From: a virus
DNA length: 30,956 nt
Direction: 5' to 3' (one strand)
UHGV virus genome: UHGV-0133295
Shown: in pieces, positions 18,001 through 21,000 of the stretch
How the letters are laid out: each line of letters starts with the position of its first letter
Position numbering within the stretch: the stretch's first letter is position 1
Made by a program: the position numbers

Positions 18001-21000
18001 ATGTATAGGTGATGTGTGTTTAATGCGTCTGTGAGCTTGTTTTGTGCCTTATTTTGCATTTTCATAATGCAGGAGAGAACACGGAAAGCCTTAAAATTAA
18101 TTATTGGGGTATTTAAGGCTATTTTTAGTGTATTTAAGGGTATTAAACTTGATTTAATTGATTAAAATATAAACAGATAATTATTTATCTTATTGATTTA
18201 TAAGGTTATTTTTAAATAAAGGTAAATAAAAAATAAATAGCCATAAATAGCTATAAATACATCTAAATACCTATAAATACATCTAAATACCTATATCCCT
18301 TCCCTTATGGCTAGATTGCGAGAGGTGCTTAACGCGATTTTCAGCGCCCCCCGATCTGGAAAATCCAGAATCCCCAAATATCAGCAAGGAATTTTCTTGC
18401 GTAATCAACATCGTTTTTACCTATTAAATCATTACACAGAAAGCCTTTCTGTAATGTCTCTCACTAAACTTTCACTAAACACGAGAATGATCGGTTTTAT
18501 GTCGGATCAGATGCTAGAAACAGCACCACGTCTCACAAGGGCTGTAAGCGATGAAACCAGTTTTTATGCGGGTGCAGGTCAAAATATAGGCCAAAATACA
18601 TTTAACATAATAAACGTAATATGCACTAAGGAACACATAGAACGCCTTGAATTGATGTATCAGGGGAAAAGTGATGGATTTTTTACGTAGGAGCACGAGA
18701 GGGCTTCTGTTGACTTTTGTATGCTATGAAATATAATTAAAGGTTTTTTTGTTTTTATCGTGTGATGTAGTGGATTACACAGGGGAATAGATTAAATGAT
18801 GTTCTGTTTATACAGGTTTATTTGTTAGATCAACAAGTTGGCATTTCTAAACAGATGTTTGAACGTTGCCAAATGTCTTGACAACACAAGAAAAGGGCTT
18901 GCTATGCCACGCATTACACGAAATAAGGCTGTAAAAACAAAATAAATTTTAAAATTTGCACAAACGAGAAAACTCGTTCAGAAACAAGCAGAACAATTTT
19001 TAGCCAACAATTTCTGATAGTGCGCTGTAAGCCGCATTACACAAGGATTTGCGAAAGTGATGTAAAAGTGAAGAAAGTAAGAATTGCTCTTTTAAGCTAC
19101 TTTTTCATTGAATTTTTAGTATGGAATTACACAGGGAATAGAGAGCATTATTCTATGATTTACACAGGGAATATAGGGGGATTATGGCACACACATAGAA
19201 AGGCATTACACAGAGTGAGTGCTATGTGACAAATGGATGTAACGAGAGGTTACATTCAGCTATCTGAAATGCTCTCTGTAAGAAAGTTGGTAGTAACGAT
19301 ATGTTACATCGACAGATGATTGGATGTAACGGTAGCTCACAGTGAACTAGGGGTAGGTCATAGTGAACTACCCCCACAGAATTCTGTTACCCCTATCAAG
19401 TCTGATACCCGATAAGTATAAATAACACCTAGGAAATGATTTCCGATCTATTTAGGAAGTAACCTAGGAAGTGGTTTCCTACCTACCTAGGAAATGAGTT
19501 CCACCAATACTATAATTAAATAATATAAATAATATTCTTTATACTATATAGCTCACTGTGAACTAGGGGGGTAGTTCACTATGAGCTAGGGGGTAGGTCA
19601 TAGTGAGCTAGGGGGTAGGTCACTGTGAACTACAATAAGACTATTAATAAAACTATATTAGATTATTAATTAGATCATAATAATAATATTCTTTATATCT
19701 ATATATATGATCTTTTGCCTTCCGGCGTTAGCTTCACTCTCTGGCAAGCAGCCTTACTCCGCTACCTTTCGGGCTTCGTGGCTGGCCCGTTCCGCTCACA
19801 CCGAAAGCAAAGCGTTACTTTCTTCGTGTAACTATCGTGGCGGTAACGCCCACGAAGAAATACTATTGCGCTGTGCGCAGAAGAGTAATCACCTAACCAA
19901 TCATACTGATTGCTTATGTGTTAACTCTCTCTAACTCTTAATTACCCTCCTACATTTAATAACTCTGTTATTCTCTGTAGTTGTGTAATTACTCGAAGAG
20001 AGAGCGGCTAAAGCTCAATTACACTCTGCTTTCCTCGTGTAATTTCACTAAGCCTCAATACAATTCCACTTCCTTGCATTCTGTAGTCGTGTAATTGTTT
20101 TCGGTGGAAAAGCCAGAGGCGACACCGAAAGAGAATTCTGATCTTATTAATCTTATCTATCTTAGTTATCTTACTTACTTATCTTACTTTATCTACTTTA
20201 TTATTAATAATAGCTTTATAAGCTCTGTGTAGCTCTTTGACGCAAGAAACAGCATTCAGGAAGGGAATCACCTTAGAAAAGTGTTCTTTGCGTCATAATG
20301 TGTTTTATGAAGGATTCAGAGGTGTTTCATAACAGGAGTGTATAGAGGATACTTTAATTAATTAAAAATAAGGGGTCTAAATGCTTCTCTAACAGCATTA
20401 AGCAGGGTAGGGAATGGAAACGCATTGCCTACATATAATAAGCTCACTACAGAGCGTTTTATAAAGTGACTCTCTATCTTATATCTGCCATTACCTTTTC
20501 ATATACCTAACAAATACAAAATAAGCCCCTTAAATAAGCCTCTGACGAGATAAATAGCCTCTACATAAGGGAATGTATTGCTTTTATCAAAACTTCGTTA
20601 GAACGCGTTTTAGAGCGTTTTAGACAATAAGGAGGAATAGCACTACACAGAAGAGCACGAATTGCTAAGAAAAAATGTAAGTGCATGAAAAAGATCAGAT
20701 TTTTTATGAAAAGGTATTGACAAATGTTTCTTTATATGTAATAATAGGTATTAGAGGGACAGAAAAACATTCTTCTCTAAATAATCAAAATCAATGCACT
20801 TTGAAGCCGTCAGGCTTGCAAGGTGTTTTTTCTTTTAACTGAATAAGGAGTTTTTTATGAAATGGTTTACACCGAAACACGTCGTAGAGGCATTTAAAAA
20901 AGGTGAGCTTACACGCCATCAAGTAGTAATGAATCGTAATATGGCAAGGAGTCGAGGTTATCCAGAGCGAGCTGCTTGCTTCAATGAAGCACTCAAGATT

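Follow-up and report, generated by a model that had tools for sequence, protein, structure and literature searches.

A candidate iteron-type replication origin matched to a winged-helix initiator in a putative satellite of phi92-like phages

The stretch of DNA analyzed here (the window) is 30,956 bp of the virus genome UHGV-0133295, and all statements of uniqueness made below refer to it. It contains an integrated element of ~12.3 kb (17180-29486) that lies between two attachment (att) repeats and opens with 3.6 kb (17180-20850) in which no gene is supported. Inside this gene-poor segment, at 19230-19700, is a mosaic of short palindromic repeats; downstream of it, at 21289-21981 on the + strand, is rep, the gene for a 230-residue candidate initiator (Rep). 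The repeat region is, very probably, the vegetative replication origin of an integrated phage satellite, and it would be driven by Rep acting through one type of its iterons, designated B.

The B-type unit of 21-22 nt, TAGSTCAYWGTGARCTAGGGG, is present in six copies, starting at 19333, 19354, 19549, 19572, 19594 and 19616. Two of these form a left cluster (19333-19374) and four a right cluster (19549-19636), with start-to-start spacings of 21 bp in the left pair and 23, 22 and 22 bp in the right four; there is none elsewhere. A scan of the entire window with the pattern TAGSTCAYWGTGARCTA, allowing up to two mismatches, returns these six sites alone (as 11 strand-matches, because the sites are palindromic), and shuffled sequence gives a mean of 0.03 matches and a maximum of 1. 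The core of the unit is a 17-bp near-palindrome, TAGYTCAC-N-GTGARCTA. A reading made earlier from the sequence only had described the two clusters (2 + 4) of ~22-bp units, and these are real. It had also assigned a mini-palindrome to every unit; the units are indeed palindromic, but over a longer span than was claimed, and the perfect TCACNGTGA core is found in only three of the six.

The B units are embedded in a series of other ~22-bp palindromic units that the sequence-only reading had in part passed over (types A, C and D). From left to right, A-type units occupy 19237-19330 (ATGTAAC-N5-GTTACAT at 19237-19255, GTAGTAACGATATGTTACAT at 19290-19309 and a half-site at 19322-19330), and are followed by the left B-type pair (19333-19353 and 19354-19374), a C-type unit, CCCCCACAGAATTCTGTTA (19371-19389), a D-type unit, CCCCTATCAAGTCTGATACCC (19390-19410), and three E-type units, ACCTAGGAARTGRKTTCC, at 19427-19502. 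The E-type units start at 19427, 19462 and 19485, are unique in the window and have a chance expectation of 0; they are the three near-palindromic ACCTAGGAA sites that had been placed between the clusters, and that is where they are. An inner AT-rich tract (19503-19548) ends in a 16-mer, AATAATATTCTTTATA (19528-19543). Next come the four B-type units of the right cluster, TAGSTCAYWGTGARCTAGGGGG, at 19549, 19572, 19594 and 19616 (17-bp near-palindromes, 22-23 bp apart, spanning 19549-19636), and then a second AT-rich block (19637-19712), the proposed DNA-unwinding element, with two GATC sites, ATAAGACTA-like motifs and another copy of AATAATATTCTTTATA (19682-19697). The 16-mer had been reported as duplicated between the clusters: it is duplicated, but just the first copy lies there, the second being to the right of the right cluster and outside the interval then reported.

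Duplex stability singles out the AT-rich block that follows the four B units: among all 60-bp duplexes in the window, 19647-19706 is the least stable (-54.6 kcal/mol against a mean of -79.9, sd 6.1, that is, more than 4 sd away); the tract between the clusters (19491-19550) ranks fourth. Beyond the block, GC-rich DNA (19713-19900) has a strong single-strand fold (z = -3.4, with no shuffle as good) that includes a hairpin, TTCTTCGTG...CACGAAGAA, at 19818-19860, and may act as a signal for priming or for loading a primosome. Even where the proteins of a locus share only ~50% identity, the patches 19786-19819, 19862-19895 and 20003-20125 are 70-91% conserved. An open reading frame (ORF) at 19707-19934 (75 residues) and other small ORFs overlap this conserved non-coding DNA, have no family support, and were rejected as genes. 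Rfam yields no match in the whole window at gathering thresholds, and none in 17100-20900 at E up to 1; no known RNA family explains the ORF-poor region.

What these repeats might do is best judged by comparison with related loci. A scan of genome contigs with Rep gave no confirmed relative, and the top 120 Rep homologues listed are all at least 95% identical; since these are too uniform, the diversity was taken from metagenome and viral contigs, the sample being 12 viral-contig and 63 metagenome loci that encode the neighboring conserved proteins. In a first set of 13 related loci (L002-L014), 15 proteins were compared among the 11 loci with a complete gene set. Eleven of the 15 are 88-100% identical and two more, p62 and p127, diverge in a few of these loci; Rep (41-97%) and an Arc-like protein (47-99%) are the most variable. 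The stretch homologous to 19230-19700 is likewise a mosaic, made of arrays of ~22-bp units of five types (A-E) whose copy number varies by locus.

The variation of Rep and that of the arrays are matched. N-terminal domains of Rep were clustered and set against the array that directly adjoins the AT-rich block in 49 loci. Domain type N0, which is that of the window, goes with array B in 14/14 loci, N1 with array D in 7/7, N2 with array C in 6/8, N3 with array E in 5/5, N4 with array F (ACATCAAAWTGATGT) in 7/7, N5 with array A in 4/5, and N6 with array G (TGACAARWTGGCA) in 3/3. Domain cluster and terminal array agree in 46/49 loci; under label permutation (20,000 runs, made with a tally of 47/50 where 46/49 is correct) 18.5 loci match on average and 26 at most. 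Two of the exceptions are half-site variants, GTGAC-N5-GTCAC in place of GTAAC-N5-GTTAC in L065, and TATAACA-N6-TGTTATA, a relative of C, in L059. At least seven main pairings are therefore to be counted, and nine array types if the two half-site variants are included; in one of these the change is a single base in each half-site.

The terminal arrays have three to six units of type C, four or five of type D, four of type E (L005, L017, L035, L042 and L051, all with an E-type Rep) and four of type A (L006 and L076, with an A-type N-terminal domain). The same pairings recur in loci whose neighboring protein is only ~50% identical: D in L054 and L074, C in L055, and A in the distant L058 and L072. 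Linkage alone does not explain the correspondence, since the ~1 kb that separates the origin from the operon is 91-96% identical to that of the window whatever the Rep type, and since the two alleles of the Arc-like protein, which is encoded between the two modules, assort independently (both are found with Rep type B). The Arc-like protein was itself considered as the iteron binder and set aside: its two alleles do not follow iteron type.

Since the array adjoining the AT-rich block is the one that tracks the Rep N-terminal domain, the cognate core of the window's origin consists of the four right-hand B units together with the AT-rich block at 19637-19712. This anatomy is general: in the relatives inspected, distant ones included, a terminal array of two to seven units is followed by an AT-rich block of ~50-75 bp and then by GC-rich DNA, the distance from array to rep being 1.5-1.7 kb where the locus is of E. 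coli type and 1.2-1.74 kb among distant relatives. The units upstream of the terminal array occur in the fixed order A, B, C, D, E (AAB+CCCCC, AABBC+DDDDD and AABBCDD+EEEE; AABBCDEEE+BBBB in the window). The left B pair, the three ACCTAGGAA sites and the other upstream units are, judged by this comparison, iterons of sister replicon types stacked in that order. The window looks like an E-type origin (three E units and an AT-rich tract ending in AATAATATTCTTTATA) to the right of which stands a B-type origin (four B units and an AT-rich block ending in the same 16-mer).

One can also read the two B clusters as the arms of a single origin of the kind found in phage-inducible chromosomal islands (PICIs), including the Staphylococcus aureus pathogenicity islands (SaPIs), with the melting tract between them at 19503-19548. 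The two clusters do flank AT-rich DNA that is among the least stable of the window, and four other loci (L002, L004, L015 and L018) share this layout. However, nine of the 14 loci with the window's Rep type carry their B units as one unbroken run with no intervening tract (eight of them have two to five B units only, and L003 has one stray upstream B), which argues that two clusters flanking AT-rich DNA are not a conserved design. The left pair in particular, which belongs to the upstream stack and is not a conserved second arm, is missing from L007, L009, L010, L011, L013, L022 and L039. Moreover, the intervening 174 bp are made up of C, D and E units, which elsewhere are terminal arrays paired with different Rep types; the AT-rich tract there is the block that follows the E x4 array in E-type loci (in L005, for example); and the origin lies 5' of rep, not immediately 3' of it, Rep being no primase-helicase. 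A PICI-type arrangement of two arms is accordingly quite unlikely. The sequence-only reading had proposed an iteron-type origin of a mobile island built on this plan. Comparison lends the origin strong support but does not support the plan: the same-Rep relatives L007, L009, L011 and L013 have a single array of two to five units and lack the left cluster, and the conserved AT-rich block lies not between the clusters but to the right of the four-unit one.

Rep has an N-terminal winged helix of ~110 residues, a linker (LPLTDAHITPP), an acidic region and a C-terminal domain that ends in EDFDIPF. In the alignment of its variants the N-terminal ~110 residues vary, and the LPLTDAHITPP segment, the acidic linker and the C-terminal domain with its (D/E)DFD(I/L)PF end are kept. 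Eight PHROG families match Rep (replication initiation, O-like and DnaD-like), the best at E 5.8e-9, as does Pfam HTH_36; families designated 'replication initiation O-like' score 1e-4 to 3e-4, and other initiator families do better (6e-9). A profile of the N-terminal domain compared with the Protein Data Bank (PDB) finds winged-helix proteins, among them DnaD-N (2vn2) at E 1e-3 and, as a weak match over the whole domain, RepA_N at E 0.11. Rep has no Pfam match to RepA_N or to Rep_3. The C-terminal tip of SSB, the E. coli protein that binds single-stranded DNA, attaches to partner proteins, for example primase and the chi subunit. The C-terminus of Rep (21937-21981, ...KVYEDFDIPF), whose (D/E)DFD(I/L)PF ending is found in 46 of ~70 Rep variants and gives way to IPF, LPF or GF in distant ones, resembles that tip, DDDIPF (PMC5872125). 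It is possible that Rep recruits the replisome by way of this SSB mimicry, which we regard as a lead and not as a result.

From the repeats, the initiator homology, the co-variation of domain and iteron, the instability of the duplex and the phage-borne copies of the domains (described below), we infer binding, melting, recruitment and replication itself along the following lines. Dimers of Rep would bind the 17-bp palindromes of the four B iterons at 19549-19636 through their N-terminal winged helices, and the 22-bp spacing would put these dimers on one face of the helix. The Rep-iteron complex would then open the AT-rich block at 19637-19712, and the conserved C-terminal half of Rep, with its SSB-tail-like EDFDIPF, would recruit components of the replisome of the host or the helper phage. 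Proteins of the host or helper must be used, because the element encodes no helicase, primase or loader: scans with Pfam and PHROG find no primase or helicase family match, and no loader-like gene, anywhere in it. Initiators of the sister types would bind the units of types A, C, D and E and the left B pair.

Several observations weigh against this account. One locus, L033 (L033:4190-4250), is a true mismatch, and the sole one, which combines a C-type Rep with a B x2 array and carries Arc allele s2. Recombination, possibly leaving it replication-defective or dependent on functions supplied in trans, may have produced it, or it may be a chimeric metagenome assembly. Many of the loci are close relatives, so that the counts overstate the number of independent events. 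The matches of Rep to initiator families are moderate, full-length Rep has no significant sequence match to solved structures in the PDB, and its NCBI label is just 'transcriptional regulator' or helix-turn-helix protein. The end of the array is 1.65 kb from the start of the downstream rep gene, and the conserved non-coding DNA between them is unexplained. Scans for the DnaA-box consensus (in 19000-20200) and for that of integration host factor (IHF) find no site. Finally, none of ten 11-14-kb contigs examined for the terminal overlap of a circular form has one.

That public label would fit a winged-helix protein that regulates transcription of satellite or phage genes, the arrays being its operators. 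The fold is a generic winged helix-turn-helix (wHTH) that is also like those of the MarR, AsnC and FadR regulators, and palindromic sites are what a dimeric regulator would be expected to bind. On the other hand, no strong promoter overlaps the arrays. The promoter-like site (20717-20745, + strand; TTGACA-17-AATAAT, extended TG) of the operon that encodes p62, the Arc-like protein and Rep is 1.1 kb away, and no B unit lies near it, since there is none outside 19333-19636. A run of four to seven phased sites with the least stable duplex behind it is how an origin is laid out, the best family matches are to replication initiators, the protein has an SSB-tail-like end, and the nuclease fusions of helper phages mirror a nuclease that is directed against an origin (PMC8263062). 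We consider a purely regulatory function very unlikely.

The context points to the element as a satellite of phi92-like virulent phages (Stephanstirmvirinae). A 46-bp segment at 18310-18355 (- strand) is a copy of the inner boundary of the phi92 terminal repeat, identical at 44/46 positions to phi92 363-318 (the annotated left terminal repeat ends at 343). Of 20 matches listed for this segment (query 1131-1176), 15 are at 95.7%, most of them to phi92-like genomes of ~146-150 kb, and 46 of the 63 records that match it fall in the 95-99% identity band. The segment is a probable mimic of the packaging (terminase) signal of the helper. As this mimic lies elsewhere, 1 kb to the left, the iterons are unlikely to be the packaging site. 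They are not copies of phage origins, since 18800-20300 (megablast) matches no phage genome and 19230-19720 (blastn) none of 50,697, and mimicry of a helper origin was rejected for that reason. The remaining alternative, that the arrays are a pac or cos site for the helper's terminase or else a partition centromere, has in its favor that phased repeats are likewise targets of terminase small subunits and centromere-binding proteins and that the domain profile is weakly like the centromere binder TubR, but it is scarcely credible given the better packaging candidate at 18310-18355, the failure of 19230-19720 to match any phage genome, the lack of a ParA, ParM or TubZ gene in the element, and an array type that follows the element's own Rep domain.

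Copies of Rep domains occur in phages of this group too. The phage ICP1 encodes Odn, a nuclease that carries a copy of the RepA DNA-binding domain of the PLEs of Vibrio cholerae (elements that resemble phage-inducible chromosomal islands) and cuts the PLE origin at its iterons; PLEs escape by exchanging their replicon modules (PMC8263062). Five Rep N-terminal domains were compared with the 50,697 phage genomes. In four Stephanstirmvirinae phages (six records) a predicted protein has an A, D or C domain first and an E-type domain second, followed at the C-terminus by a T5orf172/MUG113 nuclease domain, whose match to a PHROG endonuclease family is at E 3.9e-18. The four predicted nuclease-fusion genes stand at a syntenic locus: inny_184 (L078:2414-3517; first domain A, 95.9%; second E-type, 91%), muut_154 (L079:1504-2502; D, 100% over 95 residues; E-type, 91%), Mt1B1_P17 QNJ49226 (L080:1501-2487; C, 95.6%; E-type, 85%) and an unannotated ORF of BI-EHEC (L081:1501-; C, 95.6%; E-type, 90%). 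Because these fusions share the architecture of Odn, Rep-type domains should recognize satellite DNA that is important to the satellite. Alone among the five E. coli types, the B-type domain has no phage-borne copy in the 50,697 genomes, and B is the commonest type among the loci compared.

These facts suggest an arms race in which the helpers would repeatedly capture initiator domains (two per protein, 85-100% identical), fuse them to a T5orf172 nuclease and so cut satellite origins. The satellite would escape by switching its initiator domain together with the cognate array, or by deleting non-cognate arrays. The swaps of iteron and initiator, which have very probably been made jointly and on many occasions, are probably driven by such nucleases, to judge by analogy with ICP1, and the deletions of non-cognate arrays perhaps are. 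The fuller proposal, which could well fall either way, is that this is the origin of an undescribed family of E. coli and enterobacterial satellites parasitizing phi92-like phages, with the stack of iterons as the footprint of the arms race and B as a current escape type.

The DNA flanking the proposed origin holds further repeats. In 18400-20150 there are 12 copies of ATTACAC(A/G), where its frequency in the window as a whole would predict 1.3; seven + strand copies lie to the left of the origin (18431-19213) and three inverted ones to the right (19983-20096, - strand), so that they converge on it, and distant relatives have TTGCAC/ATGCAC at comparable places. At 18107-18295, 10-bp-phased repeats (GGGTATTTAA x3.7 and TAAATACMYC x6) flank the second least stable 60-mer (18178-18237), and could be bent DNA or another protein-binding array. 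The third least stable 60-mer (20153-20212) is found between the origin and the promoter of the operon, where it falls on an array of 9-13-bp repeats, CTTATCT/ATCTTACTT (20141-20204). A near-palindrome at 18838-18875, TTGGCATTTCTAAACAGATGTTTGAACGTTGCCAA, is 74% like positions 135-172 of the phi92 terminal repeat, is conserved in the distant L074, and may be a phage-responsive promoter or binding site.

The left border of the element is marked by the att repeat ACTCCTATTATCGGCACCAT (17160-17179), which forms the 3' end of a tRNA fragment (no complete tRNA is detected by ARAGORN, the att sequence being a 3' fragment only), and the right border by an exact 20-bp repeat of it (29467-29486). Next to the right border is the gene of a tyrosine integrase (28046-29380, - strand; Pfam Phage_integrase, DUF6538 and Phage_int_SAM_5). 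The element also contains small genes, that of the Arc-like protein among them, and several unknown genes. At 24077-27964 are genes for a capsid protein of the lambda-E family, a tape-measure-like protein of 611 residues (phrog_16051, E 9.5e-54) and a protein that is Dit-like. The last of these has 55% identity with proteins from phi92 and from other Justusliebigvirus phages. The capsid protein is a distant relative (~23%) of head proteins from ~98-150-kb phages whose hosts are Klebsiella, Escherichia and, the most frequent, Pseudomonas. With capsid, tape-measure-like and Dit-like proteins of its own, the satellite may alter its helper's head as well as its tail.

To the left of the element, positions 1 to ~16,800 belong to a P22-like prophage and make up its late region, with genes for portal, scaffold, coat and injectosome proteins and for an endosialidase tailspike. 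Adjoining the tailspike gene is an ORF (16051-16755) in which the ATG is followed by eight perfect TCAAGAC heptads (16052-16109). Its product is putatively acetyltransferase-like, and the ORF resembles the phase-variable neuO acetyltransferase of the K1 prophage CUS-3. Just beyond the right att repeat, at 29640-29978, is an N-terminal fragment of a second integrase, of P4 type, apparently what is left of another island at this tRNA site, a site also used by the P22-like prophage on the left.

Segment 18800-20300 is present in 662 of 5,426 complete E. coli genomes (12%), and at least 80% of it in 229 (4%); some of these are remnants. It is found at different tRNA sites, thrW in strain ST866 and, as a remnant, glyU in another strain. 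In E. coli w264 (L001:20001-21552) a remnant of the origin region, from which the structural genes are gone, lies beside tRNA-Gly, a small recombinase gene and an IS3 element. A plasmid origin was considered and rejected, a plasmid database having given two marginal matches, one of which is a mislabelled chromosome.

If the proposals made here are true, E. coli carries a PLE-like satellite/helper system aimed at the large virulent phages that are used in therapy cocktails, and nucleases directed against origins may be a general counter-measure of phages against their satellites. To our knowledge such nucleases have so far been known only from ICP1. The origin makes the system testable, because the DNA sites and the binding domain are both defined and swap variants exist in nature. 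The pairings of domain and array are, in addition, a ready-made series for asking how winged-helix domains change their DNA specificity, and the SSB-tail-like end of Rep suggests a simple route of replisome recruitment for a minimal initiator. A literature search, which did not cover subscription journals, turned up no earlier account of either the element or the nuclease fusions of the phages.

The iteron origin with a winged-helix initiator is already a known kind, and several systems invite comparison. Iteron plasmids of the Rep_3 type (RepA, pi, TrfA) have asymmetric sites that bind monomers, DnaA boxes, and iterons at the rep promoter. The present origin shares with them direct repeats about two helical turns apart, in variable copy number, beside an AT-rich region; it differs in that its palindromic units fit dimers and in having no DnaA boxes, no Rep_3 match and no iterons at the rep promoter. 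The origin of phage lambda is closer in some respects. It has about four dyad-symmetric iterons of ~19-22 bp next to an AT-rich unwinding region and is bound by dimeric O through its N-terminal domain; specificity resides in that domain of O, and recruitment of partners in the C-terminal part. A dyad-symmetric iteron array adjoining an AT-rich region is likewise found here, the similarity of Rep to O being evident at the profile level only. Unlike ori-lambda, which lies inside the initiator gene, the present origin is 1.65 kb upstream of that gene, no P-like loader is encoded, and the initiator has an SSB-tip-like C-terminal tail.

PICI origins lie immediately 3' of the pri-rep primase/helicase gene, and two sets of iterons flank their AT-rich region (PMC6092414). 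Like them, this is a satellite origin of short, replicon-specific iterons with AT-rich DNA (PMC6092414), but its conserved form is a single array followed by the AT-rich block, located 5' of the gene for a small wHTH initiator, and it departs from PICI origins in three defining features.

The PLEs provide the nearest likeness. They are satellites of a virulent myovirus, with semi-palindromic iterons in a long non-coding region that serve as the origin (PMC8263062); the present element, a probable satellite of such a phage, has the corresponding sequence features. They too have a swappable initiator N-terminal domain that co-varies with the origin and a conserved C-terminal part (PMC8263062), and exchange of the N-terminal domain along with the origin, the C-terminal part being kept, is what is found here. 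The helper chimera of initiator domain and T5orf172 nuclease domain (PMC8263062) also has its counterpart, as a prediction, in the four phage genes. The differences are nevertheless considerable. The host here is E. coli and the helpers are Stephanstirmvirinae; Rep is HTH_36/O-like and not clearly RepA_N (E 0.11, no Pfam match); there are at least seven main specificities (nine with the half-site variants) against two in PLE; the units are ~22 bp long and present in two to seven copies in place of three ~30-bp repeats; and beside the cognate array there is a stack of several iteron types that are non-cognate. The phage fusions, for their part, have two tandem DNA-binding domains that are 85-100% identical to satellite domains, as compared with 42% for Odn. 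What is new, then, is how many specificities are matched, that non-cognate iterons form an ordered stack, that the setting is E. coli with phi92-like phages, and that the helpers have nuclease fusions of dual-domain design.

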